Origin: Patescibacteria group bacterium
GTDB lineage: Bacteria > Patescibacteriota > Patescibacteriia > Patescibacteriales > JBAZCA01
Assembly (NCBI GenBank): GCA_041661405.1
Contig: JBAZUL010000001.1
Span: 92,403-156,402, forward strand
DNA length: 64,000 nt
Direction of reading: 5' to 3'
Shown: one piece after another, positions 5,157 through 63,429 of the stretch
How the letters are laid out: the number at the start of each line of letters is the position of its first letter
Position numbering within the stretch: the first letter of the stretch is position 1
The notes under the pieces: model-generated
Databases searched by the model: none
What the model saw: only the letters and a program-made list of their open reading frames with translations
Told to the model about the DNA's origin: nothing
Program-made: the position numbers and the translations under genes

Positions 5157-5248
5157 GGTTTAAAGAATAACAGCTAGCTTGGTTAATAGTCAATTGAGTC
5201 AGTTAAAAGAAAATAAAAAACTGGGCAATAGCCCAGTTTTTATGCGTG

Positions 5249-5320
5249 TAGTCCCTAGGGGAGTCGGACCCCTGTTACCAGGATGAAAACCTGGTGTCCT
5301 AACCGTTAGACGAAGGGACC
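5249..5320 (-). tRNA. tRNA-Glu (anticodon UUC)
   Basis: Reverse complement GGTCCCTTCGTCTAACGGTTAGGACACCAGGTTTTCATCCTGGTAACAGGGGTCCGACTCCCCTAGGGACTA folds as a cloverleaf. The anticodon loop is TTTTCAT. A hairpin ctgggc-aata-gcccag with a T-run follows at 5211-5236. Confidence 0.85.
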
Positions 5321-5597
5321 ATAATTAGTTTTCAATTGTCAGTTTTCAATTTTCAATTATTTTTTGTCCTCAAATAAACGGTAATACACTAACAATTGAA
5401 CTTGGATTTTTGATAAAACAAAAGCTCTTTGCCAGAGCTTATGTTATTATAACAAAAAACCGCGGCTTGTCAATAATTTCGCTAAAATTGAGGCAATATT
5501 TTACTTGTTAAATTTACTAAGGTATAATAAAATCAGCTAAATAAAACATAAGCGGTTTTTTCTAACCGCTAAACGCTACATCCTATTCCCTGAATTT

Positions 5598-8552
5598 ATG
5601 TCCGATAAAAAACCAAAACTCTTAATAATTGACGGCAACGCCCTGATCCACCGGAGCTTTCACGCCCTGCCGGAAACTATGATGACTAAAACCGGGGAGC
5701 AAACCAACGCGGTTTACGGTTTTATCATGGTGCTTTTAAAATCTTTAAAAGACATAAAGCCCGAATACGTGGCCTTGACCCTGGATAAAAAAGGCCGGAC
5801 TTTTCGCCACGAAGCCTTTGACGACTACAAAGCCCATAGAGTAGCCGCGCCCATGGAATTATATAAGCAAATCCCGCGGATAAAAGAGCTCGCCCGGGCT
5901 TTTAATATCCCTATCTATGAGATGTCCGGCTACGAGGCAGATGACCTGATCGGGACGATTTCGCGGCATGTTGATGGGAGCGTTGAAAAAATCATCGTAA
6001 CCGGGGACTTGGACACCTTACAGCTCGTAAACGACCACACCAAAGTCTATACCATGAGCCATGGATTGTCGGATAATGTAATTTACGACGAAAAAAAAGT
6101 CCGGGAACGTTTTGACGGACTCGGGCCGGATCAGATGGTAGACTACAAAGGCTTGCGCGGCGACCCGTCGGACAATATTCCGGGCGTGCCGGGCATTGGC
6201 GAAAAAACCGCCATTGAACTATTAACAAAATTTAAAACTTTGGACGGGGTTTATAAATATCTGGAAAACAGACGACAGAAAACAGACGACAGAAAACCTG
6301 CCTCGCCGGCAGGCAAGCAGACGACAGAAAAGTCTGAAGAGATGATTAAACCTCGCATTGCCGAACTTTTGAAAACCCACAAAAAACAAGCTTATTTAAG
6401 CCAGAAACTCGCCCGGATTGAATGCGAAGCCAAAATTGAATTTAGCCTGGACGAAACTAAATTCGGCCGATTTGATAATGAAAAAATCATAAAATTATTC
6501 AGTGAACTGGAATTTAAATCGCTTATCCCAAGAATAAAAGAAATCGGGACTAAGGACGGCGGAATTGCGGCCGGGGATGAAAGTCCGGCTGAAGATAAGT
6601 TTGAAAGGAATAAAAAAACATTCAAATACCGGCTCATAGACAGCGAAAAATCTTTCCAAAAATTCATCATTGCGTTAAAAAAGCAAAAAATATTCAGCCT
6701 GGATACGGAAACTTCGGGCTTTGACGCCCACTGTTCCAGCCTCTTAGGCATCAGCTTCAGCTGGAAAGAGGGCGAAGCCTGGTTTATTAAAGTTAAAAAC
6801 CATGTCAGTAAAGAATGCGTAAAAAGCGCGAGAAACCTTAATTTGTTCGGTAGCCCTGAGAGCGAAGACACTCTTCCGCCGGTTGTTTTAGGAAAAAAAG
6901 GCATTGGCCTGAATAAAATCGTTGACGCGCTAAAGCCGGTTTTAGCCGACCCGAAAATAAAAAAAACCGGCCACAATATCAAATTTGATTACAAAATCCT
7001 AAAAATGTCCGGCATGGAAACAACGGGAATTTATTTTGACACCATGATCGCCTCCTACCTTTTAAATCCCGGCAGCCGCCAGCACGGTCTTGACGCTTTA
7101 ACTCTTTCGGAACTCGGCTTTGAAAAAATTTCTAAAGAAGACCTTTTAGGCAAAGGAAAAATTAAAATCGGCTTTTCGGAGATTAGCGCGGAAAAGCTAA
7201 GCCTTTATTCATGCGAAGACGCTGACTTTACTTTCCGACTTTTTATGAAACTCAAAAAAGAATTACCCGATCGCGGCCAAAAAAAACTTTTCCATGAGAT
7301 TGAAATGCCTTTGGTTCCGATACTTGGGGACATGGAACTCGCCGGCATAAAAATTGACGCGCTGTTTTTAGAAAACATGGGGGAGAAAGTAAAAAAAGAA
7401 ATCGCGAAGCTCAAAGAAAAAATCTGGCAATCAGCCGGCCTTGAATTCAATATCAATTCAACCAAACAGTTAAAAGAAATCCTTTTTGAAAAACTCGCTA
7501 TTTCCACCCTTGGCGTCGGAAAAGGAAAAACCGGCTTTTCCACTTCAGCCGGCGAGCTATTCAAATTAAAGGACAAGCACCCGATTATCCGGCCTTTGAT
7601 GGAATACCGGGAATTAGCCAAACTCCAAAGCACCTATATTAAAGCCCTGCCCGATCTCATTAATGGAAAAACCGGCCGGGTCCATACCAGCTTCAACCAG
7701 TCCGTCACCTCCACCGGCCGGCTCTCCTCAACCGAGCCGAATCTGCAGAACATCCCGATCCGCACTGAACTAGGGCGGGAAATAAGGAAAGCTTTTGTCG
7801 CCGAACCCGGCTTTAAGCTCCTTTCGGCCGATTACTCGCAGATTGAGCTCCGGCTCGCGGCCCACGCTTCCGGCGACAAAAAAATGCTTAAGGCTTTTCG
7901 CGACGGATTAGATATCCATTCAGCCACGGCCGCGGAAATAAACAACCTGGCGCTTGATAAGGTAACGCACGAAATGCGGCGCGAAGCCAAAGCCGTAAAC
8001 TTCGGCATAATCTACGGCCAAGGGCCGCGCGGCCTTTCCGAATCAGCCGACATCCCTTACGACCGGGCTAGAGAATTTATCAGCGGATATTTTAACGTTT
8101 ACGCGGACGTAAAAAAATATATTGACGAAAGCATAGAAAGCGCGCGGGTAAAAGGCTTTGCCGAAACCATGTTCGGCCGGAAAAGATACCTTCCGGAAAT
8201 AAATTCCCCGGCCATACAAATTAAAAAAGCGGCCGAGCGCATGGCCATCAACACTCCGCTTCAGGGCGCGGCCGCCGACATGATTAAAATCGCCATGATT
8301 AATATCTCGCGAATGATAAACGAATTTAATGCGGATGGCGGCGAATCATCCTCGCGCGAGGAAAACAAGGAAATCCGGATGCTTCTGCAGGTCCATGACG
8401 AGTTGCTTTTTGAAGTCCGAGAGGATAAAATCCAGGAGTGGGCGAAAAAGATCAAAGCCGCCATGGAGGGCGTCGCCAGACTTAAAGTGCCAATTATCGC
8501 CGATCTTAAAACCGGAAAAAATTGGGGCGAGATGGAAAAGATAGAAATATGA
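5598..8552 (+). CDS. polA: DNA polymerase I (5' nuclease + 3'-5' exonuclease-like + polymerase domains)
   Basis: N-terminal LLIIDGNALIHRSFHA and GVPGIGEKTA, then polymerase motifs DYSQIELR, RREAKAVNFGIIYG and QVHDELLFE. Confidence 0.95.
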   Translation: MSDKKPKLLIIDGNALIHRSFHALPETMMTKTGEQTNAVYGFIMVLLKSLKDIKPEYVALTLDKKGRTFRHEAFDDYKAHRVAAPMELYKQIPRIKELARAFNIPIYEMSGYEADDLIGTISRHVDGSVEKIIVTGDLDTLQLVNDHTKVYTMSHGLSDNVIYDEKKVRERFDGLGPDQMVDYKGLRGDPSDNIPGVPGIGEKTAIELLTKFKTLDGVYKYLENRRQKTDDRKPASPAGKQTTEKSEEMIKPRIAELLKTHKKQAYLSQKLARIECEAKIEFSLDETKFGRFDNEKIIKLFSELEFKSLIPRIKEIGTKDGGIAAGDESPAEDKFERNKKTFKYRLIDSEKSFQKFIIALKKQKIFSLDTETSGFDAHCSSLLGISFSWKEGEAWFIKVKNHVSKECVKSARNLNLFGSPESEDTLPPVVLGKKGIGLNKIVDALKPVLADPKIKKTGHNIKFDYKILKMSGMETTGIYFDTMIASYLLNPGSRQHGLDALTLSELGFEKISKEDLLGKGKIKIGFSEISAEKLSLYSCEDADFTFRLFMKLKKELPDRGQKKLFHEIEMPLVPILGDMELAGIKIDALFLENMGEKVKKEIAKLKEKIWQSAGLEFNINSTKQLKEILFEKLAISTLGVGKGKTGFSTSAGELFKLKDKHPIIRPLMEYRELAKLQSTYIKALPDLINGKTGRVHTSFNQSVTSTGRLSSTEPNLQNIPIRTELGREIRKAFVAEPGFKLLSADYSQIELRLAAHASGDKKMLKAFRDGLDIHSATAAEINNLALDKVTHEMRREAKAVNFGIIYGQGPRGLSESADIPYDRAREFISGYFNVYADVKKYIDESIESARVKGFAETMFGRKRYLPEINSPAIQIKKAAERMAINTPLQGAAADMIKIAMINISRMINEFNADGGESSSREENKEIRMLLQVHDELLFEVREDKIQEWAKKIKAAMEGVARLKVPIIADLKTGKNWGEMEKIEI
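6269..6331 (+). repeat. In-frame insert: 3x CAGACGACAGAAAA plus palindrome CCTGCC-TCGCC-GGCAGG
   Basis: The 14-mer lies at 6269-6282, 6283-6296 and 6318-6331. The palindrome lies at 6297-6313. The tract encodes NRRQKTDDRKPASPAGKQTTEK in the linker after the 5' nuclease domain. Confidence 0.9.
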
Positions 8553-16896: not shown

Positions 16897-17003
16897 AAAT
16901 AAAAATTGAGACGATTAAGATTTTTGGGATAGTTGAGATTTTTGGGATAAAAAATATCCCGATTATCCCAATAATCCTAAAAATCCCAACAATCCCGTAA
17001 ATA

Positions 17004-25757: not shown

Positions 25758-27101
25758 ATGGAAAAGGAGCAAATTTGGCAAGTGGTTCTCGGAGAAATTG
25801 AACTTACTTTGTCGCGGGCGAATTTCACCACCTGGTTTAAAAACACATCCATATCCGACATCCAGGAAGACCGGATAATTATCAGCGTGCCTAATAATTT
25901 TACAAAAACCTGGCTGGAAAAAAAATACCATAAGGAAATTTCTCTGGCTTTGGAGCGGATTATTAATAAAAAAATTAAGGAAATCATTTATAAAATTGAA
26001 ACTATAAAAAGAGATAATGGCGGCAGTCGGCCGGCCGGATCGGCTAATAACGGCTATAGTTCTTTTGAACCCCAGCCGCAAAATCGTTTTGGCCTTAATA
26101 ACCGTTATACCTTTGAAAATTTTATTGTCGGCAAAGGGAATGAGCTGGCCCACGCGGCTTGTCAGGCGGTAGCAGCCAACCCCGGCCGGGCTTATAATCC
26201 GCTATTCATTTATGGCGGTGTCGGCCTCGGAAAAACCCACCTGATCCAGGCGGTCGGACATGAATTAGCAAAAAAAACCAGTAAGATCCTTTTTGTTACC
26301 AGTGAAAAATTCACCAATGACTATATTCAGGCGGTGCGAAACGGCCGGGCCAAGGAATTTAAAGACACTTACCGGAACGTTGATTTGTTTCTGGTGGACG
26401 ATATCCAGTTCATCAGCGGCAAAGAAAGCACCCAGGAAGAGTTTTTCCACACCTTTAACGAGCTCCACCAATCCAACAAGCAAGTCGTGGTCGCCTCTGA
26501 CCGGCCGCCAAAATCCATCCCTTACCTGGAAAAACGCCTCCTATCCCGTTTTGAGTGGGGCATGATTGCCGATGTGTCCCAGCCAGACCTGGAAACCCGC
26601 GTCGCTATTTTAGACGCCAAATGCCGGGAGCGGAATTTCCTCATCCCAATAGACCTTCTAAATTATGTAGCCGAAAACGTGGTCTCTAATATCAGAGAGT
26701 TGGAAGGCGTATTAAACCGCCTAATCGCTTACCACGAATTTAATAACACCAAGCCCACCTTGGACAGTTTAAAGCAGGTTTTAGGCGGTATTGTCGCGGC
26801 GTCAGTTCGCCCAACCTCCTCAAAAAGGATTATTGAGGCTGTGTCCGGATTTTATGAAGCGCCAATTAATGACATAACCGGAAAAAGCCGAAAAAAAGAA
26901 CTGGTTAAACCGCGGCAGATAATCATGTACCTTCTGCGCACCGAACTAAATATTTCTTACCCAACCATCGGCAATGAGCTTGGAGGAAGGGACCATACTA
27001 CTGCCATGCACGCTTTTGTAAAAGTAAGCAAAGAGGTGGGAGAAAATGCCCGCGTTAAGCAAGAAATTGACGCAATTAAACAGTTGCTTAGTTGTGGATA
27101 A
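25758..27101 (+). CDS. dnaA: Chromosomal replication initiator DnaA
   Basis: YNPLFIYGGVGLGKTHL (Walker A), LLVDDIQF, and the C-terminal DNA-binding motif GGRDHTTAMHA. Confidence 0.97.
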   Translation: MEKEQIWQVVLGEIELTLSRANFTTWFKNTSISDIQEDRIIISVPNNFTKTWLEKKYHKEISLALERIINKKIKEIIYKIETIKRDNGGSRPAGSANNGYSSFEPQPQNRFGLNNRYTFENFIVGKGNELAHAACQAVAANPGRAYNPLFIYGGVGLGKTHLIQAVGHELAKKTSKILFVTSEKFTNDYIQAVRNGRAKEFKDTYRNVDLFLVDDIQFISGKESTQEEFFHTFNELHQSNKQVVVASDRPPKSIPYLEKRLLSRFEWGMIADVSQPDLETRVAILDAKCRERNFLIPIDLLNYVAENVVSNIRELEGVLNRLIAYHEFNNTKPTLDSLKQVLGGIVAASVRPTSSKRIIEAVSGFYEAPINDITGKSRKKELVKPRQIIMYLLRTELNISYPTIGNELGGRDHTTAMHAFVKVSKEVGENARVKQEIDAIKQLLSCG

Positions 27102-27335: not shown

Positions 27336-27383
27336 GCATCTTAGGGGATAACTTCTTTACCGATAACATGCCGGTTAGTGATT

Positions 27384-28520
27384 ATGAAAATTTCCATACT
27401 CCAAAAAAATTTTAAACAAGGCCTTGGGCTGGTGGGAAGTATTACCGGCAAGCATGTTAATTTACCAATCCTGAACAATATACTGATTCGGGCGGAAAAT
27501 GGCATAATTAATTTAGTCTCTACGAATTTGGAAATTGGTGTTACGCACGTTATTAGGGGAAAAATAGAAAAAGAAGGCGGCTATACTGTAGATTCAAAAA
27601 TACTCGCCAATTACGTCGGGCTTTTGCCGAACGAAAAGGTGGAGATAGAACAGAAAGATGCGCAAATTATTATTCGTTGCGGAAAATATAATACAAAGAT
27701 AAATGGTCAGCCGGTTGACGACTTTCCGCTTATCCCAGTTATTGGGCGGGAAATTTTTTACGCGATAAAAAACGTCGATGACTTTAAAAACGCCCTTTCC
27801 CAGGTAATTTTTTCTGTTTCAACCAGCGAATCGCGGCTGGAACTCTCCGGGGCGCTTTTTTCTTTTTCCGGCGATAAGCTGGTTCTCGCGGCCACCGATA
27901 GTTACCGGCTGGCGGAAAAAAGAATAACTGTAAAAACCAATGCCAAGGACGGCGCGGAACGGAAAGTTATTGTCCCGGCCAGGACTATTCAGGAAATGAT
28001 AAGAATTCTTTCCGGGCTTGGGGAGAGCGAGATGATGGAGGAGGAAAAAGAAATTAAATGTTTTTTTTCAGAAAACCAAATACTGTTTAAAATCGGCGGA
28101 ACCGAGCTGGTTTCCCGGCTGATTGACGGGCAGTTTCCTGATTACGCGCAGATTATTCCGGAAAAACCAAGGACAACGATTATTGTTAATCGCCAGGAGT
28201 TTTTAAGAGCGGTAAAGGCTTCGTCAATATTTACCCGAAGCGATGTGAATGATATTAACCTGGATATTCCCGAAGGCAAGTCAAAATTGGTTATATCGTC
28301 ATCTTCGGATTTTGTCGGCGAGAACGTGGTTGAAGTTGAGGCGGCGGCCAAAGGCGCGGATAATTGCCTGGTTTTAAATTACCGCTACCTGATTGACGGC
28401 CTGAATAATATTAAAGACGAAACCGTGATAATGGAAATCGTGGATAATAATTCGCCCTGCGTAATCAGGCCGGAAAGCGATTCGGATTATCTCTATATAA
28501 TCATGCCGATTAAAAGATAG
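27384..28520 (+). CDS. dnaN: DNA polymerase III beta sliding clamp
   Basis: MKISILQKNF..., LPILNNILI, ATDSYRLA, and position after dnaA. The ATG at 27384 is preferred to the GTG at 27378. Confidence 0.93.
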   Translation: MKISILQKNFKQGLGLVGSITGKHVNLPILNNILIRAENGIINLVSTNLEIGVTHVIRGKIEKEGGYTVDSKILANYVGLLPNEKVEIEQKDAQIIIRCGKYNTKINGQPVDDFPLIPVIGREIFYAIKNVDDFKNALSQVIFSVSTSESRLELSGALFSFSGDKLVLAATDSYRLAEKRITVKTNAKDGAERKVIVPARTIQEMIRILSGLGESEMMEEEKEIKCFFSENQILFKIGGTELVSRLIDGQFPDYAQIIPEKPRTTIIVNRQEFLRAVKASSIFTRSDVNDINLDIPEGKSKLVISSSSDFVGENVVEVEAAAKGADNCLVLNYRYLIDGLNNIKDETVIMEIVDNNSPCVIRPESDSDYLYIIMPIKR

Positions 28521-30094: not shown

Positions 30095-30266
30095 AAAAAA
30101 CCTCGTTTTAATACCGCAATACTGCGGTACTAGAACGAGGTTTTATATAAACTCCCGCGGTTCCATCTAGCTTCCCCGCATTTGCGGGGCACCTTAATTA
30201 TCCTTGTAGCTCCGCCCGAGGCGGAAGCGCGAAAGGGCGCCAATCTCCTTTCTTTAAGAGGAATAT
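30095..30266 (-). promoter_or_regulatory. T-box riboswitch leader (glycine-type) of glyQS
   Basis: On the minus strand, a stem III hairpin ccccgca-aat-gcgggg precedes a T-box core AGAUGGAACCGCGGG (30154-30168) that fits UGGNACCGCG. A terminator aaaacctcgtt...aacgaggtttttt follows at 30095-30144. A candidate GGC specifier lies at 30239-30241. Confidence 0.7.
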
Positions 30267-34587: not shown

Positions 34588-35802
34588 TTATGAAAGGGAA
34601 ATTTTTATAAATTGCCTTTTACCCCTCTGGATAATCATCCCGTCTTTCAGTTCAATGCTTTTAAAAGGGTCTCTTACGGCTTCGCCGCTGATTTTTATTC
34701 CTCCCTGCTCAATAAGCCTTCGAGCCTCCCCCTTGCTAACGGATAAATTTGTTTTTACGAGCAACTCAATAATGTTCCATGTTCCATGTTCCATGTTCCA
34801 TTCTTTAATTTCATCCGGAATTTCCTTTTTTTGGACGGTTTTTATAAAATGCTTTTCGGCTTTTTTCGCCTTCCCTTCCCTGTGTATTATTTTAGTGATT
34901 TCCAGAGCCAGTTTCATTTTTAAATCGCGCGGATTAACGCCCGAATCCTTCAGCTGTTCCTGGATTTTTTTAATTTCATTAAAAGAAATTTTAGTCGCGA
35001 GTTCAAAAGCGGCGCCGATTACGCCGTCCGGCCAGCTCATTACCTGGCCGTAGACGTTTTCCGGGGTTTCGCTCATGAATATGGCGTTGCCTTCGGTTTT
35101 CCCCATTTTTACTCCACCCGGATCAGCGAGTAATTTTGTCGTTAAAACGTATTTTTCCTTATTTTTCATGGTTCGCAGGAGATCGCGTCCGCAGAGCATG
35201 TTAAACATCTGGTCGTTCCCGCCGATTTCCAGATCAACATCCATGGCGACTGAATCATAGCCCTGGGCGATTGGATAAAGGAACTCGTGGAAGTGAATCG
35301 GCTTTTCCTCTTTCATTCTAACTTGGAACATATCGCGCTGAATCATCTGCTGAACCGTAAAATTGGAGGTGATTTCAATTAAATCCTTAAAAGTAATTTT
35401 GTCCGACCATTTGGAATTGTACATCACCTTGGCCGGATTCTCGCCCTTGAAATTCAGGTAGGCCGCGGCCTGTTTTTTATAGTTTTTGGCGTTAGCGCGC
35501 ACCTCAACACGGGTAAGTTTTTTCCGGGTGGCTTTTTTGTCGGTCGGGTCGCCGATCATGCCGGTAAAATCGCCTATTAGAAAAATAACTTCATGACCGA
35601 GCTCCTGGAACTGCCTTAATTTATTTAACTGGATGGCGTTGCCGATATGGAGAGCCGGAGCGCTCGGATCAAAACCGCAATAAAGTCGGATTCTTTGGCC
35701 GGACATAAGGACTTTTTCCAAGGCCTCATAAGACGGGAAAATTTTTTCCACTCCCCGGGTTAATACTTCCTTAATTTTTTCCTGGTTAGTTATAGTTGCC
35801 AT
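34588..35802 (-). CDS. tyrS: Tyrosine--tRNA ligase
   Basis: GFDPSAPALHIGN (HIGH), KMGKTEGN (KMSKS) and a C-terminal S4 domain. Confidence 0.93.
   Translation of the reverse strand: MATITNQEKIKEVLTRGVEKIFPSYEALEKVLMSGQRIRLYCGFDPSAPALHIGNAIQLNKLRQFQELGHEVIFLIGDFTGMIGDPTDKKATRKKLTRVEVRANAKNYKKQAAAYLNFKGENPAKVMYNSKWSDKITFKDLIEITSNFTVQQMIQRDMFQVRMKEEKPIHFHEFLYPIAQGYDSVAMDVDLEIGGNDQMFNMLCGRDLLRTMKNKEKYVLTTKLLADPGGVKMGKTEGNAIFMSETPENVYGQVMSWPDGVIGAAFELATKISFNEIKKIQEQLKDSGVNPRDLKMKLALEITKIIHREGKAKKAEKHFIKTVQKKEIPDEIKEWNMEHGTWNIIELLVKTNLSVSKGEARRLIEQGGIKISGEAVRDPFKSIELKDGMIIQRGKRQFIKISLS
34772..34799. repeat. Perfect 7-nt tandem repeat (ATGTTCC)x4 inside tyrS
   Basis: Read directly. It encodes EWNMEHGTWNI just before the S4 domain. 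Confidence 0.9.
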
Positions 35803-39065: not shown

Positions 39066-41432
39066 ATGAAAACTTTAAAATTAGACGTAAGCGGCATGCA
39101 CTGCGCGTCTTGCGCGGCGATTATTGAGCGCAGTCTGAAAAAAACGGCTGGCGTGAAAAACGCTAGCGTGAATCTGGCTTCGGAAAAAGCCACGGTTATT
39201 TTTGATGAAAAAAAGCTGGATGCCGAATTAATAATCAAAGCGATAGAAAAGGCCGGGTACGGCGCGAAGTCCCCCGGCGGCGAAAAAGAAGAAGCGAAAA
39301 GTAAAAGAGAAGAATTAAAAAGCCAGTTTAATAAACTTTTAGCCAGCTTGATTTTATCCTTGCCGATGTTTTATTTCATGCTCATGGATTTTTTGCCCGC
39401 CTTGCCTGGCCGCGCCTCCCTGCCTTACCATGGCGTTATTTCCCTGCTTCTCACCCTTCCGATCCAATTCGTTATCGGCGCCCGATTTTACAAGGGCATG
39501 TGGTCGGCGCTCCGAATGAAAACTTTTAACATGGATTCGCTCGTTGCCATCGGCACTTCCACAGCTTTTTTTTACAGCTTGGCGAACCTCTTGATTTACG
39601 CGACAAAAACCGGTTCAGTAATCGGCCAAAACGGGGAGATGGTGCCGGATCTATATTTTGAAACTGCGGCCTTCTTAATCACTTTCGTGATACTGGGCAA
39701 ATGGCTGGAAACGCGGACTAAAGGAAAAACTTCGGATGCCATAAAAAAGCTCATGGGGCTAAAGGCGAAAACCGCGAGAGTACTTAGCGGTAGCGGCGCG
39801 GCTGATTTGCCGATTGAAGCCGTGAAAAAAGGCGATATAATAATTGTCCGGCCCGGGGAAAGCATCCCGGTTGACGGTAAAATTACTAAAGGCCATTCTT
39901 CGGTTGATGAATCCATGCTCTCCGGCGAATCCATTCCGGTTGAGAAAAACGCCGGCGACATAGTTATTGGCGGGACGATCAACAAAACCGGAAGTTTTGA
40001 ATTTAGCGTCTCAAGAGTAGGCGAAGAAACAACTTTAGCGCAAATTATCCGGGTGGTGGAAGAAGCCCAGGGTTCAAAAGCGCCGATTCAGGGTTTTGCC
40101 GACCGGATTTCGGCCTATTTTGTTCCGGCCGTGATTGGCATCGCAATCCTCACTTTCCTCGTTTGGTACTTTTTATTAAGCGCGACAATCGCTTTTTCAT
40201 TAATGGCTTTTACCGCTGTTATTGTTATTGCCTGTCCTTGCGCTTTGGGGCTCGCTACCCCGACCTCGCTCATGGTCGGAACCGGCAAGGGCGCTCAATA
40301 CGGAATTCTTATTAAAGGCGGAGAACCGCTGGAAGCGGCGCAAGGCATCAAGGCAATCGTTTTTGATAAAACCGGAACAATTACCAAAGGCAAGCCGGAA
40401 GTGACTGACGTGATTAAATTCCAAATCCCAAATTCCCTGCCTCGCCGGCCGGCAGGCAAATTCCAAAATTTGGATATTATTAAAATTGCCGCGGCTTTGG
40501 AAAATAATTCCGAACATCCGCTAGCAGAGGCTATAATTAGAAAGTCCAAAGAGGAAAACTTGGAAGTATTGCCAGTAGATAATTTTATGGCCATTCCCGG
40601 CCAGGGCGTAACCGGAGAAGTCGGCGGAAAAAAATATTATCTTGGCAACCGGAAATTGGCGGTTGAAGCGACCAAAGTGTCTTTAGGAAAATTCGAAGCC
40701 GAAATATCAAAGCTGGAAAGCGAGGGCAAAACAGTGATGGTTCTGACTGACGAAAAGGAAATTCTAGGCGCCGTAGCAGTCGCTGATACGATTCGGGAAA
40801 CTTCGCGCGAAGCGATTGAAAAGTTAAAGAAAATGGGGCTGGAAGTATATATGATTACGGGTGACAATGAAAAAACCGCCAAAGCCATAGCGAGTCAGGC
40901 CGGGATTGACAGCGTGTTGTCAGAAGTCCTGCCCGAAGACAAAGCCAGCGAAATTAAAAAATTACAGCTGGCCGGAAAAAAAGTCGCGATGGTCGGCGAC
41001 GGGATAAATGACGCTCCGGCTTTGGCGAGAGCCGATTTAGGCATTGCCATGGGCGGCGGCACGGACGTCGCCATGGAAACCGGCGGGATAATTATTATGC
41101 GAAACGACTTACGGGACGTTGTCACCGCCTTTGAGCTCTCCCGCGAAACCATGGTGAAAATAAAACAGAACATGTTTTTCGCCCTGTTCTATAACGTCAT
41201 CGGCATTCCGATTGCCGCCCGGGTGTTTATGGGCTTTAGCCTGGTCTTAAAGCCGGAACTGGCCGGCCTCGCTATGGCCTTAAGCTCCGTATCGGTAGTT
41301 TCTAATTCCCTTCTTCTCCGCCTATTCCGACCCGGAAAAAGAAATTATTTATCGCTTGCCGCGCCGATTATCATGGTCATCCTTTTTAGCTTTCTCTTTT
41401 ACGAATTCGCCAGGTTCAGTTCCGGGATGTAA
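39066..41432 (+). CDS. copA: Copper-translocating P1B-type ATPase
   Basis: [19 protein letters not shown], the CPC in TM6, DKTGTIT, SEHPLA, and [10 protein letters not shown]. Confidence 0.95.
40416..40473 (+). repeat. In-frame insert: palindrome CCTGCCTCGCCGGCCGGCAGG flanked by AAATTCCAAA-type words
   Basis: The core at 40436-40456 shares CCTGCCTCGCCGG..GGCAGGCAA with polA 6297-6316. It encodes [13 protein letters not shown] between DKTGT..VTD and SEHPLA. Confidence 0.85.
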
Positions 41433-47423: not shown

Positions 47424-47502
47424 ACTTAGGAAGTAAGGAATAAACAGTAAATAGTAAACAGATTTTCAGATGCTCTGTTTACTGTTATCTATTTACTGTT
47501 TA

Positions 47503-48918
47503 CTATTTAATATAGTTAAGCGGATTATATTTGGTTCCATTGATGATTATTTCAAAATGCAGATGCGATCCGGTTGACCAGCCGGTAGAACCCATGGCGC
47601 CGATAGTTTCTCCCTTTGAGACTTGCTGGCCTTTCTTGGTGAAGAATTTGGAAAGGTGGGCGTAGCGGGTTTTCTTTCCGCCGCCGTGGTCAATAACAAT
47701 CTGGTTGCCATAGCCGGTTCCCCAGCCAATAAACTCAATGGTTCCGGCGTCAGCCGCGTAAATCGGGGTACCGATTTTGTTGGCAATATCCACCGCGGTA
47801 TGCCGCCAGGAATAATATTGGGTAATCCGGTAGCCGGCGGTCGGCCAGTTCATCTTGTTGCCGGATATCGGTTTTGAGTTGCCGGGCTTGATAATCTTTC
47901 CGAGGTCTTTTAAGACGGAAATGCCCGAATAAGACGGCTGGCGGTAAGCGACCGCTTCAATTCTCCGGCCGCCCGGAATGATTAATTTTTGTCCGGCCTG
48001 AAGAGTCCCTCCGGCCAGCTTGTTGGCCTTCGCGATTTCATCCTGACTCACTCCATATTTATTGGCTATGTTAACCAGCGTGTCGCCTCGCGCCACTTTA
48101 TAGGAAATGCCGGATGTCGGGAGAATATTGAGCTTATCGCCGGGCCGGATAATGCTGTAAGCGGTGAGGTCATTTTCCCAAAGAATAGTGTTAACGCTCA
48201 CGGCAAATTTTTGGGCGATAGTTGAGACCGTATCGCCTTCTTCCACGGCGTAAGTCATGGCGCTTTCGCGGAGCCGGATTATTTTGTCCGTAGAAACCAT
48301 CTCCGGCTTTTGCAAAGCCGTTCCGCCCTGGTTAAGGACGGCTAGTTCGTCTTCGGCGTTTAAATCGTCTTCGGTGAGCGTCGGCTGGGAGCGGAAACTT
48401 GAAAGGTTTTCAAGATAGCTTTGCTGAATCGGCGATATGGTTACTTCCTGGTCAAAGAATTCTTCAATCAGCCGTTCGTCTTCAACCGTTCCAAACTCAT
48501 TTTGGATTAAGCTGGAAAGGATGGTTTGTCCCGAACCCGCGCCCTGGCTTACGGCGGACGTGGGTTCGGTTATATTAAAAAAAACAATAGCCAGGGAAAT
48601 AAAAACCATTAAAAGGTGAACCATCTTTTGGTTTAAAAAACTCCAGGCTGGAGAGCCTGACCAGCCACTTTTTTTTGTGATATAGAGATATAGGCGGTAT
48701 ATTTTTACCACTAATTTGTAAAAAATAAATTTTAGGCCCGGCCGGCCGGCTGTTTGGTAAAAATAAAAAACGCTTCTGGCTATGACGTTTATTGTGAGTT
48801 TGCCCAGATTTAAAATCCGGATCAGCAATTCAATAAAAAAAATGATTACGCTTTTTAACAAACGGCTTTTTTCCTTTCTTTTTTGAGGTTTGTAATATCG
48901 GATATAATCGATTGCCAA
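47503..48918 (-). CDS. LysM-repeat M23 family peptidoglycan endopeptidase
   Basis: LysM repeats (YAVEEGDTVSTIAQKF, YKVARGDTLVNIANKYGV) and the M23 motifs HTAVDIA and GSTGWSTGSHLHFEI. Confidence 0.88.
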   Translation of the reverse strand: MAIDYIRYYKPQKRKEKSRLLKSVIIFFIELLIRILNLGKLTINVIARSVFYFYQTAGRPGLKFIFYKLVVKIYRLYLYITKKSGWSGSPAWSFLNQKMVHLLMVFISLAIVFFNITEPTSAVSQGAGSGQTILSSLIQNEFGTVEDERLIEEFFDQEVTISPIQQSYLENLSSFRSQPTLTEDDLNAEDELAVLNQGGTALQKPEMVSTDKIIRLRESAMTYAVEEGDTVSTIAQKFAVSVNTILWENDLTAYSIIRPGDKLNILPTSGISYKVARGDTLVNIANKYGVSQDEIAKANKLAGGTLQAGQKLIIPGGRRIEAVAYRQPSYSGISVLKDLGKIIKPGNSKPISGNKMNWPTAGYRITQYYSWRHTAVDIANKIGTPIYAADAGTIEFIGWGTGYGNQIVIDHGGGKKTRYAHLSKFFTKKGQQVSKGETIGAMGSTGWSTGSHLHFEIIINGTKYNPLNYIK

Positions 48919-49010
48919 TTACCAATTGTTAACTACGAATATTATTGCCCGCCTTTTTGCAGTATCATTCGTAATTGAAAAATTGGTAATTGAATATTGA
49001 TAATTGATGC

Positions 49011-49083
49011 TGTGCGCCCACCAGGGGTCGAACCTGGAACCTTGGACTTAAGAGGTCCCTGCTCTGCCAGTTGAGCTATGGGC
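49011..49083 (-). tRNA. tRNA-Lys (anticodon CUU)
   Basis: Reverse complement GCGCCCATAGCTCAACTGGCAGAGCAGGGACCTCTTAAGTCCAAGGTTCCAGGTTCGACCCCTGGTGGGCGCA, with loop CTCTTAA. Confidence 0.88.
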
Positions 49084-49229
49084 GCCCGACTTTATTAAAA
49101 CGCTGGATCCCGCATGCCTTCGGCTGCGGGATAATTTACTCACACGTAAATTAATTTATAGCATAGCAGGCGGCATTTTTCAACTCAAGGAATTTATTAA
49201 GAAGTTAATTTATCACCAGGGCTTTACGG

Positions 49230-51392: not shown

Positions 51393-51994
51393 ATTGGTTT
51401 TTAAATAAATAAAAGCCTTTTTGGCTTAACGGCTACTGCGGTTATTATAAGTTAAAACATCCATAATTGCAAGCCGGCCGTTAAAAAAAAGTCAAATAAA
51501 AAGGGGCCCAGACGGGCCCAAATAAAATAAATAATTTTGTGGCCTATGTCTTGAGCCCCAGCCCTAAGAGTTTATTCTTGGCCATCTTTATGATGGTTTA
51601 AGAAAATCCCTACCCTCAGGGTTTAGGCGCAGTTCCGCCAATTTGGAAAATGCTCTCTTTTTACCGATCTTTAGCCAGATTTGGGCGGTTTTTTGTTTTG
51701 CCCATTCCAGCAGTTTTTTTATTTTTATTTTTTTGCCGGTATTGGCTCCCGGCAATTTAGATCAGTTCAAAGATGTACACAACTGAATTCAATTGTGCAT
51801 CCGGCTTCTCGAATTAATGAATCCAGAAAAGCCAATAAATTGTCAATGCACTATCTGAATCAATTATATCAAAATTGTCTACCTGAGTCAAACCTCAACG
51901 ATGATTTTGTTTATTAGCCGTAAATAAGACAATATTTTGCTAAATTTAGACAAAATACTTTATTTAATGACTAGCTATGCGATTTTTAAGGTAC

Positions 51995-59882: not shown

Positions 59883-60464
59883 ATGAAAAAATATAAACAT
59901 TTAGTCTTTCTGTTTTCTGTTTTCTGTTTTCTGTTTTCTGTTAATATCTGTTCGGCGGCGATAATTGATGGGCTGATTTGCGCGACTGATACAACCGGGG
60001 CGTCAAATTGCAGTTTAAACGATTTTGTCCGTATTGGTACTAACGTTGTCCAGCTGATTTTCGGGCTGGCCGGTTCTTTGGCCTTGCTGTTCTTTATCTA
60101 CGGGGGTATAATGTGGGTGATTTCGGGCGGCAATCCGGACCGGGTTAAAAAGGGGCTGGATGCCATAAAGAACGCGGTAATCGGTCTAATAATAATTTTC
60201 GCGAGCTACATGATAATAAACTTTGTCATGACTTCGCTCGGGTATAAGATGAACGGCGGAGTCTGGAATACCACGCCGTCGGGTTCAACTACCACAGGTA
60301 TTACGCCGCCGCCGACTAGCCCTACCCCCACGCCGCCGCAGGGAGGATGTTGTCTAATATCCGATGCCGGCAGGTTTAATGAAACCTGCTCTAATAGCAG
60401 TTGTCCGGCGCAGTGCCCTAAAATCAATTGTCTACCCGTTAGCTGTCCTTGTGACTCTGATTAA
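59883..60464 (+). CDS. TrbC/VirB2-like pilin-family membrane protein with Pro/Thr linker and Cys-rich C-terminal tail
   Basis: A signal peptide, then two TM helices with GGIMWVISGGNPDRVKKGLDAIKNAVIGLIIIF (pilin-like), and a tail GGCCLISDAGRFNETCSNSSCPAQCPKINCLPVSCPCDSD. Confidence 0.6.
   Translation: MKKYKHLVFLFSVFCFLFSVNICSAAIIDGLICATDTTGASNCSLNDFVRIGTNVVQLIFGLAGSLALLFFIYGGIMWVISGGNPDRVKKGLDAIKNAVIGLIIIFASYMIINFVMTSLGYKMNGGVWNTTPSGSTTTGITPPPTSPTPTPPQGGCCLISDAGRFNETCSNSSCPAQCPKINCLPVSCPCDSD
59907..59940. repeat. 7-nt tandem repeat (TTTTCTG)x4 plus a 6/7 partial unit inside the pilin-like signal peptide
   Basis: Read directly: tttctg then ttttctg x4. It encodes FLFSVFCFLFSV. Confidence 0.9.
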
Positions 60465-63333: not shown

Positions 63334-63429
63334 ATCCCAAAATCTGTATTTAAGAATTTGTCCCGAGGATCGGTGATCCCGATTTCTCGGGACTCGGGAT
63401 TGAAATTTGGAATTTGGAGCTTGGGATTT

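Follow-up and report, generated by a model that had tools for sequence, protein, structure and literature searches.

The stretch of DNA analysed here, referred to as the window, comprises 64,000 nt of contig JBAZUL010000001.1 (assembly GCA_041661405.1, positions 92,403–156,402 of the forward strand) from the metagenome-assembled genome of a Patescibacteria group bacterium and has a GC content of ~43 %. It carries a GC-rich hairpin module of 21 nt (the core) twice, once in the DNA polymerase I gene polA and once in the Cu-ATPase gene copA, and at both sites the core is bordered by repeated heptamer words. The features of the two open reading frames (ORFs), in window coordinates, are listed below; tandem periods were determined with Tandem Repeats Finder (TRF).

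5598–8552, + strand: polA ORF, all Pol I domains present
6269–6331, + strand: polA cassette, CAGACGACAGAAAA CAGACGACAGAAAA CCTGCCTCGCCGGCAGGCAAG CAGACGACAGAAAA
6264–6296, + strand: left heptamer array of the polA core, (GAAAA)CAGACGA CAGAAAA CAGACGA CAGAAAA, equal to two 14-mers; TRF period 14 and 7, 100 % matches
6297–6317, + strand: polA 21-nt GC-rich hairpin module, CCTGCCTCGCCGGCAGGCAAG, encoding PASPAGK
6318–6331, + strand: right heptamer array of the polA core, CAGACGA CAGAAAA
39066–41432, + strand: copA ORF, with the 21-nt core at 40436–40456
40416–40435, + strand: left heptamer words of the copA core, AAATTC CAAATCC CAAATTC
40436–40456, + strand: copA 21-nt module, CCTGCCTCGCCGGCCGGCAGG, encoding (S)LPRRPAG in the copA frame
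40457–40470, + strand: right heptamer words of the copA core, CAAATTC CAAAATT

The motif CCTGCC-N(3–12)-GGCAGG was found in the window at the polA and copA sites only, with no occurrence in 100 shuffles. The coordinates and this pattern scan confirmed what a preliminary description of this DNA had proposed, namely a GC-rich palindrome with repeat words in polA and a twin core in copA. Likewise, the reading frame is open through both inserts, yielding KPASPAGK in PolA and LPRRPAGK in CopA, so the in-frame character and the shared PAGK peptide noted earlier hold as well; PAGK is common to both peptides because of the internal GGCA periodicity of the core. The two cores had also been thought to differ by a CC indel; they are instead 21-mers of equal length, each one substitution away from a common consensus. 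The 14-mer CAGACGACAGAAAA occurs in polA in three exact copies (6269–6282, 6283–6296 and 6318–6331) that are translated in three different frames, as RRQK, TDDRK and QTTEK, which indicates that the repeat was made at the DNA level and not at the protein level.

The consensus, CCTGCCTCGCCGGCAGGCAGG (CCTGCCT-C-GCCGGC-AGGCAGG), was the dominant sequence among the copies listed in the searches described below and consists of 7-nt inverted arms, CCTGCCT and AGGCAGG, with the palindrome GCCGGC in the centre and one extra C. The polA core differs from it by G20→A and the copA core by A15→C, and both variants recur at other loci, the copA variant at L054 and L118. The consensus folds as a hairpin in two registers, and for the polA core as single-stranded DNA a 6-bp stem with a 5-nt loop (−5.9 kcal/mol) was predicted. 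Variation was concentrated at the central or loop positions and the 3′ end in a set of copies that is ascertainment-biased. The length of 21 nt corresponds to seven codons and to three heptamers, and none of the six frames of the consensus contains a stop codon. RNA-level excision is neither needed nor suggested, the insert being seven codons without a stop. No Rfam match was found at the polA or copA site, nor in eight carrier loci at the gathering threshold, and an Rfam scan of the whole window returned tRNAs only.

Distribution and target context of the 21-mer

The core was searched for in genomes, using one genome per species and the pattern CCTGCCTCGCC-N0-4-GGCAGGCAA (a 24-mer, the core extended by CAA), and in metagenomes, using the exact 21-mer CCTGCCTCGCCGGCAGGCAGG with no CAA requirement; the 118 copies listed from the metagenome scan were taken as the unbiased set. 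The 24-mer pattern was found at a minimum of 118 genome loci and the 21-mer at a minimum of 120 metagenome loci, against a chance expectation for the 21-mer of ~0.3 by our own arithmetic (2 × 596 Gb / 4^21). The core is therefore not unique to polA and copA of the window, the search having added more than 240 further loci in many phyla. Among the matches listed, the carriers in the Patescibacteria included Saccharibacteria, Gottesman-, Shapiro-, Roizman-, Falkow-, Moranii- and Magasanikbacteria and Peribacteria, as well as the 998-kb contig Ga0074195_1000003 of a closed genome. Those in the Bacteroidota included cultured Maribacter, with a complete chromosome in Maribacter sp. LLG6340-A2 (NZ_CP159332.1), and Xanthomarina and Arenibacter isolates, and further carriers were Ignavibacteria, Elusimicrobia, Omnitrophota, Planctomycetes and some gammaproteobacterial metagenome-assembled genomes (MAGs). 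Full-text searching of the literature turned up no description of this 21-mer core.

The 150-nt flanks of 178 copies had nothing in common except word arrays and a few same-genus pairs. This makes the 21-mer a free-standing module and no part of a larger repeat, and a larger conserved element around the core is ruled out on the same grounds. Copy density was low, with two copies in the 64-kb window; the flanks of other carriers held ~1 more for every 60 kb. Nearly all copies at the listed loci were single, not dimers or clusters, and tandem core-word-word-core arrangements were seen at L080, L092 and L183. In 2.9 M viral contigs the 24-mer was found at no locus and the 21-mer at three loci (two distinct, both in GC-rich contexts), and in the PLSDB plasmids the core was absent, with chance partial matches only.

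Genes linked to the core were sought by comparing 2028 ORFs from 238 loci all against all with BLASTP. None of the clusters recovered near cores was a family of transposases, reverse transcriptases or nucleases; they were housekeeping only (glycosyltransferase, ABC transporter, aminoacyl-tRNA synthetases and similar). A scan of 1.6 Mb for half-sites of a parent transposon returned no split pair around an internal segment, and solo half-sites were rare, with 3 left and 11 right against ~250 paired. At one metagenome locus (L223), arms CCTGCCTGCC and GGCAGGCAGG lie ~20 nt apart; this related form with a longer loop may represent an intermediate or belong to a sister family.

The words that border the two cores also occur in the window without a core, at the following positions.

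59907–59942, − strand: core-free array of the polA word, (CAGAAAA)×5, in a type IV secretion system (T4SS) pilin-like ORF (59883–60464)
63400–63429, − strand: core-free array of copA-type words, AAATCCC AAGCTCC AAATTCC AAATTTC

Their recurrence here shows that the arrays are an independent genome-wide feature, and TRF detected at least nine other core-free heptamer or octamer tandem arrays in the window. The preliminary description had taken the words around the cores as local duplications belonging to the insert; the words are indeed there, but as pre-existing heptamer tandem arrays and not as products of the insertion.

The core strongly prefers such arrays. Among the listed unbiased copies, a direct repeat of 7 or 14 nt, exact and flush with the core, was present at 11 of 118 (~0.3 expected), and a direct repeat of at least 6 nt, allowing slack at the boundary, at 28 (~3 expected). 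An obligatory target-site duplication was rejected, given a flush repeat of only 0–1 nt at 98 of the 118 copies; the appearance of a word on either side of the 21-mer arises because any insertion into a period-7 array produces it. Flanking inverted repeats around some non-array copies were seen by eye only and with no chance control, and in a strict count the stem was extended by at least 6 bp at 4 of the 118 copies, so an inverted-repeat context was not counted as an established preference. A ‘NNNCCAA word’ consensus was withdrawn as an artefact of the CAA required by the first search pattern, the unbiased flanks having only a consensus of ..A-T-C, core, C.. at ~50–58 %.

Several core-free arrays lie in or beside recognizable genes of the window. 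Read on the other strand, the array at 59907–59942 is (TTTCTGT)×5 and encodes the hydrophobic N-terminal segment VFLFSVFCFLFSV of the T4SS-pilin-like protein. In the tyrosyl-tRNA synthetase ORF (34588–35802, minus strand), a perfect in-frame (ATGTTCC)×4.3 array at 34772–34801 occupies the linker between the catalytic domain and the S4-like C-terminal domain. Other arrays are situated directly 5′ of tRNA-Glu (array 5329–5358; tRNA 5248–5320, minus strand) and directly 3′ of tRNA-Lys (array 48967–49008; tRNA 49012–49085, minus strand). Inverted word arrays, TTGGGAT... facing ATCCCAA... at 16920–16996 and (TAAACAG)×3 facing (CTGTTTA)×5 at 47441–47509, form long AT-rich intergenic hairpins that may act as terminators.

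Gain and loss in PolA and CopA

The closest PolA relative (P0002, 86 % identity) has at the same spot the sequence GAAAA(CAGACAA)×3 CAGACGA AATAAAA ACAAAAA, an array of six heptamer-lengths that leaves exactly 21 alignment columns empty where the window has its core. A relative at 82 % identity has neither array nor core, and most PolA orthologues have a short ...YKNLDSK-KIKPR... loop instead. The alignment with Pol I orthologues thus bears out the lineage specificity that had been suspected, the core being missing as an exact 21-nt unit at 86 % identity and the whole cassette at 82 %.

For CopA, proteins at 90 % identity are without the 11-residue insert segment. An 81 % relative (P0124) carries the core in antisense at another site, 190 codons downstream, where it reads (TCGTCAA)×3 + CCCGCCTGCCGGCGAGGCAGG + TCGTCAA and encodes NRQSSIVNPPAGEAGRQS; the window is empty there. 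The sequence AAATTCCAAAATTT, which stands beside the copA core in the window, is common to the window and this relative. At the position of the window’s own copA insert, P0124 has a different 19-nt hairpin, TCCCGCAGTAAGCGGAATC, between two AAATTCCA repeats (L124, 3336–3380), an in-frame insert of 27 nt in all, indicating that two different small palindromes have struck the same codon position in related genomes.

Altogether 240 PolA and CopA homologues were examined for core-encoded peptides. Core variants were confirmed at the DNA level in P0053, where CCTGCCTTGCCGGCGGGCAGG lies in antisense in the same PolA loop, and in P0076, where CCTGCCTCGCCGGCAGGCGGG lies in the PolA exonuclease region. 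A possible further copy at the PolA N-terminus of P0105 is a peptide match only (LPAGKAG, with one mismatch). In other lineages this very PolA loop has GC-rich palindromes of different sequence beside word arrays, a 34-nt perfect palindrome, TTTCCGCCCGAGGCGGATCCGCCTCGGGCGGAAA, in P0009 and (CACAAAAA)×3 followed by TCCGCC...GGCGGA in P0011.

The module enters DNA precisely as a 21-nt unit, without need of a target-site duplication. Close relatives differ in whether they carry it, in where it lies and in which of the two orientations. The PolA and CopA relatives establish repeated, independent and recent insertion. A core that is present or absent, shifted or reversed among relatives does not follow from vertical protein evolution, and we hold it very probable that the core is an insertion module that is gained and lost. 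This agrees with the earlier suggestion of a tiny insertion element in place of ordinary protein evolution, given both the number of further loci and the close relatives without the segment. The alternative offered with it, a repair footprint, is not borne out, half-sites being rare and no parent element having been seen in the half-site scan.

The PolA insert corresponds to residues 224–244, a length-variable loop among 40 orthologues, and lies inside the Pfam domain 5_3_exonuc (residues 176–294) rather than in a linker after the 5′ nuclease, where it had been placed before. In an AlphaFold model of PolA residues 1–340 made with these 40 orthologues, the mean predicted local distance difference test (pLDDT) score was 88.7, falling to 61–68 over residues 231–250, and this low-scoring stretch was modelled as a coil between helices 215–230 and 252–260. 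The window inserts add PASPAGK to this 5′-nuclease loop of PolA and LPRRPAG to a CopA loop after the DKTGT...TD motif. The insert is tolerated because it is seven codons long, free of stops in all frames and located in a loop.

Of the listed unbiased copies, 72 were located in open frames of 150 aa or longer, 47 of them in sense and 25 in antisense orientation, and the other 46 lay outside long ORFs. The sense copies were read as LPRRQAG (20), PASPAGR (17) or CLAGRQ (10), and two of the three antisense frames contain Cys. This frame use is consistent with selection against cysteine-containing readings. The 21-mer probably has no function of its own.

Mode of spread and relation to known repeats

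We consider it reasonably likely that polA and copA each carry a copy of a very small insertion module that is non-autonomous, has the consensus CCTGCCTCGCCGGCAGGCAGG, has spread through the chromosomes of many phyla and is copied in trans. Identical 21-mers in unrelated flanks argue for copying, and the lack of a linked gene argues for action in trans; our confidence in the mode of spread proposed here is moderate. The module would be copied from existing copies by a trans-acting function that recognizes the hairpin or palindrome. The likeliest route would use the single-stranded DNA of the replication fork, in which slipped heptamer arrays and the loops of hairpins would lie exposed, following the logic proposed for HUH enzymes, as in repetitive extragenic palindromes (REPs) with their REP-associated tyrosine transposases (RAYTs) and in IS200/IS605, and for the small dispersed repeats (SDRs) of cyanobacteria. 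Short-homology recombination may also play a part where two arrays have a word in common, the core being exactly three words long. Selection would then favour the coding-strand orientation and the two Cys-free frames, with surviving copies in variable surface loops, and read-through of the insert, as opposed to bypass, would give the peptide ...DDRKPASPAGKQTTEK.... Identity across phyla would call for a recognition protein that is either shared widely or passed on horizontally, or else for a template that is conserved, and neither was found.

Several points weigh against this reading of a module copied in trans. No enzyme or master copy was found, and no neighbour family was enriched among the ORFs compared by BLASTP. 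The identity of the 21-mer across phyla is hard to reconcile with the lineage-specific co-evolution of element and transposase that the REP/RAYT analogy would suggest. The first search pattern forced CAA after the core and biased the apparent ‘CAA...’ words, and the order of events in polA, with the array first and the core afterwards, is a parsimonious reconstruction. About three-quarters of the listed unbiased copies have neither an array nor a clear hairpin context, so that target choice is only partly explained.

Spread with no dedicated enzyme, by replication slippage, template switching or short-homology gene conversion between arrays of the same word with the core as a passenger, appears doubtful to us. 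It would fit the core length of exactly three heptamers, the tandem core-word-word-core arrangements and the sharing of words across loci within one genome (AAACTTC at four loci of a Shapirobacteria MAG, and the polA and copA words in the window). However, ~75–80 % of the listed unbiased copies are outside arrays, the cores of a single genome can reside in arrays of different words (polA against copA, and two word types in an Elusimicrobia MAG), and the identical sequence across phyla is left unexplained. An excision footprint or minimal miniature inverted-repeat transposable element (MITE) is unlikely. Under this explanation the 21-mer would be what a larger DDE-type transposon left on excision, its two ~10-nt terminal inverted repeats joined together, or would derive from such a transposon by internal deletion, and the 7-nt words would be its target-site duplication; the core can formally be divided into two inverted 10-nt arms, CCTGCCT(C)GCC and GGCAGGCAGG, and in array contexts it appears as a 21-mer between two 7-nt words. 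That appearance is trivial for any insertion into a period-7 array, and the predominance of flush repeats of 0–1 nt (98 of 118), the rarity of solo half-sites, the lack of separated halves in the 1.6 Mb scanned and the lack of an enriched transposase family near the copies all oppose it.

Lower still is the probability we assign to a selected cis-acting site, such as a protein-binding site, an RNA or DNA hairpin, or an uptake-signal-like or structural element accumulating by drive or selection. The extreme conservation, with variation mostly at the central or loop positions and 3′ end in the ascertainment-biased set, the 2:1 strand bias relative to genes and the near absence from viral contigs would suit such a site. 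Against it, copies are intergenic or lie in housekeeping ORFs that have nothing to do with one another, where each of the three frames and either orientation is represented, close relatives are without a copy at the same site, the density is only ~1 per 30–60 kb, no Rfam family was matched, and the strand and frame bias is accounted for by the avoidance of cysteine-containing frames. Ordinary evolution in situ of low-complexity linkers, or an assembly or sequencing artefact, is effectively refuted. Both window sites do lie in variable loops, and 21 is a common assembler k-mer size, but the identical 21-mer is present at more than 240 unrelated loci, including a complete chromosome of cultured Maribacter and Xanthomarina and Arenibacter isolates, and frames are always preserved, point variants exist and the core is read in three frames. 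NCBI, JGI and ENA moreover all have records of PolA with the insert, the longest contig being 191,305 bp. The ENA contig L119 (175,601 bp), with an identical polA, is by its returned coordinates not collinear with the whole window, and the two are evidently separate assemblies of the same organism.

We regard as very improbable a single templated DNA-synthesis or insertion machinery working in 7-nt steps, of which both the 21-mer and the heptamer arrays would be products. A reverse-transcriptase- or telomerase-like activity would be a candidate, as would a primase-polymerase, in each case with a conserved template to copy from. It would cover the length of 3 × 7 nt, the lack of target duplications, the identity of the core across phyla and the recurrence of words at many loci, and if it were real the long-unexplained heptamer repeats of bacteria known as short tandemly repeated repetitive sequences (STRRs) and long simple sequence repeats (LSSRs) would have an enzymatic origin.

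By analogy, the closest counterparts of the 21-mer are cyanobacterial SDRs, REPs and the Rickettsia palindromic elements (RPEs). The family fails the defining features of REPs, MITEs and RPEs and behaves like the SDRs with another host range and target. SDR1–8 of the Nostocaceae are said to be dispersed modules of 21–27 nt, and we know of no mobilizing function for them. That size, too small to encode anything, is matched by the 21 nt found here, as are the precise insertion, the unrelated flanks and the presence or absence between relatives, seen here as the exact 21-nt gap in the 86 % PolA. SDR5 is stated to insert between the third and fourth base of the highly iterated palindrome HIP1 (PMC4390886), and SDRs are reported only in Nostocaceae (PMC4390886, PMC5861425). 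In contrast, the 21-mer favours heptamer arrays and not HIP1 as its target, and it is identical across Patescibacteria, Bacteroidota, Elusimicrobia, Planctomycetes and others, hosts that are not cyanobacteria; on the SDR side this comparison draws on descriptions only.

REPs are short (20–40 nt), GC-rich imperfect palindromes mobilized by RAYTs and present in tens to hundreds of copies (PMC3116915, PMC3733652). The cognate RAYT (Y1 transposase) gene belongs to the same genome and has the repeats on its flanks. They occasionally lie in frame inside genes, including DNA-repair genes (PMC3733652), but are mostly lineage-specific extragenic inverted dimers or clusters with a GTAG or CGTC tag at one end (PMC3733652, PMC3116915). 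The 21-mer is likewise a repeated near-palindrome, and a mechanism involving a single-stranded hairpin is plausible for both. It begins with CCTG and ends with CAGG, however, and has no GTAG or CGTC; its copies are mostly singletons, 72 of the 118 listed unbiased ones (~60 %) are found inside open frames of 150 aa or more, and it is identical across phyla where REPs are lineage-specific. No RAYT was found among the ORFs of the 238 loci.

RPEs are ~100–150 bp long, add 30–50 residues and are not known outside Rickettsia and relatives. The 21-mer resembles them in being palindromic, in frame in essential protein genes at surface-exposed positions and tolerated there; it differs in its size of 21 nt or seven residues, which is not that of an RPE, and in spanning phyla. 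The arms could be read as the terminal inverted repeats of a MITE, but no target-site duplication of fixed length accompanies them. Yeast mitochondrial GC clusters and the ‘byp’ elements of Magnusiomyces are GC-rich hairpin modules of 30–55 nt in an AT-rich organelle genome; the length of a byp is not a multiple of three, and the ribosome has to bypass it. To our knowledge, the mechanism that mobilizes either has not been described. They share with the 21-mer the scattered occurrence of GC-rich hairpin modules, also in coding sequence, whereas the 21-mer is always seven codons, so that read-through suffices, and is bacterial and not organellar.

The words that flank the polA and copA cores are of the kind described in PMC4679880 as LSSR heptamer repeats (Mrazek 2007, as cited there), cyanobacterial STRRs and the TAACTGA repeats of Beggiatoaceae, which are short tandem heptamer arrays at many loci, intergenic and intragenic, with a patchy phylogeny. 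They share with these a period of 7 or 14 (6264–6297) and recurrence at other loci, and the difference is that the descriptions of these repeats have no conserved palindromic core in the arrays. Identity across phyla, the 3 × 7 = 21 geometry and residence in heptamer arrays are the surprising properties of the 21-mer.

If the reading of a trans-copied insertion module is correct, the 21-mer ranks with the smallest mobile or insertion modules described so far. Unusually, its sequence is also the same in phyla that are very distant from one another, among them the Candidate Phyla Radiation, whose repeat biology has hardly been explored. Highly conserved essential enzymes (Pol I and Cu-ATPase, in relatives at other sites of these proteins) have repeatedly been invaded by a stop-free palindrome of seven codons with the frame kept, and a discrete palindromic module is thereby linked to the enigmatic bacterial heptamer tandem repeats. 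The inserts create lineage-specific indels in marker genes, which can pass for protein features or disturb alignments, and the 21-mer offers a concrete handle for finding the responsible enzyme.

Other features of the window

The genes dnaA (25758–27101) and dnaN (27378–28520) lie at the minimum of the cumulative GC skew, and the replication origin is probably near 25.3–25.7 kb of the window. With the origin there, polA would be oriented head-on and copA co-directionally with replication. The two genes would be on opposite replichores with the core in the same orientation, which gives no consistent relation to replication (n=2).

GC-rich hairpins with a perfect stem of 6 bp or more and a loop of 3–9 nt numbered 44 in the window against ~4 in composition-matched shuffles. 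Many of them precede T-runs and are terminator-like, and one at 51493–51530 has AAATAAA repeats on both sides. Between genes, the stretch at 30150–30260 is GC-rich and structured, contains the hairpins CCCCGCATTTGCGGGG and TCCGCCCGAGGCGGA and had no Rfam match; it may represent a small RNA that has escaped annotation, or a further family of palindromes. The TCCGCCCGAGGCGGA hairpin is half of a 34-nt perfect palindrome in the PolA loop of another Patescibacterium (L245).

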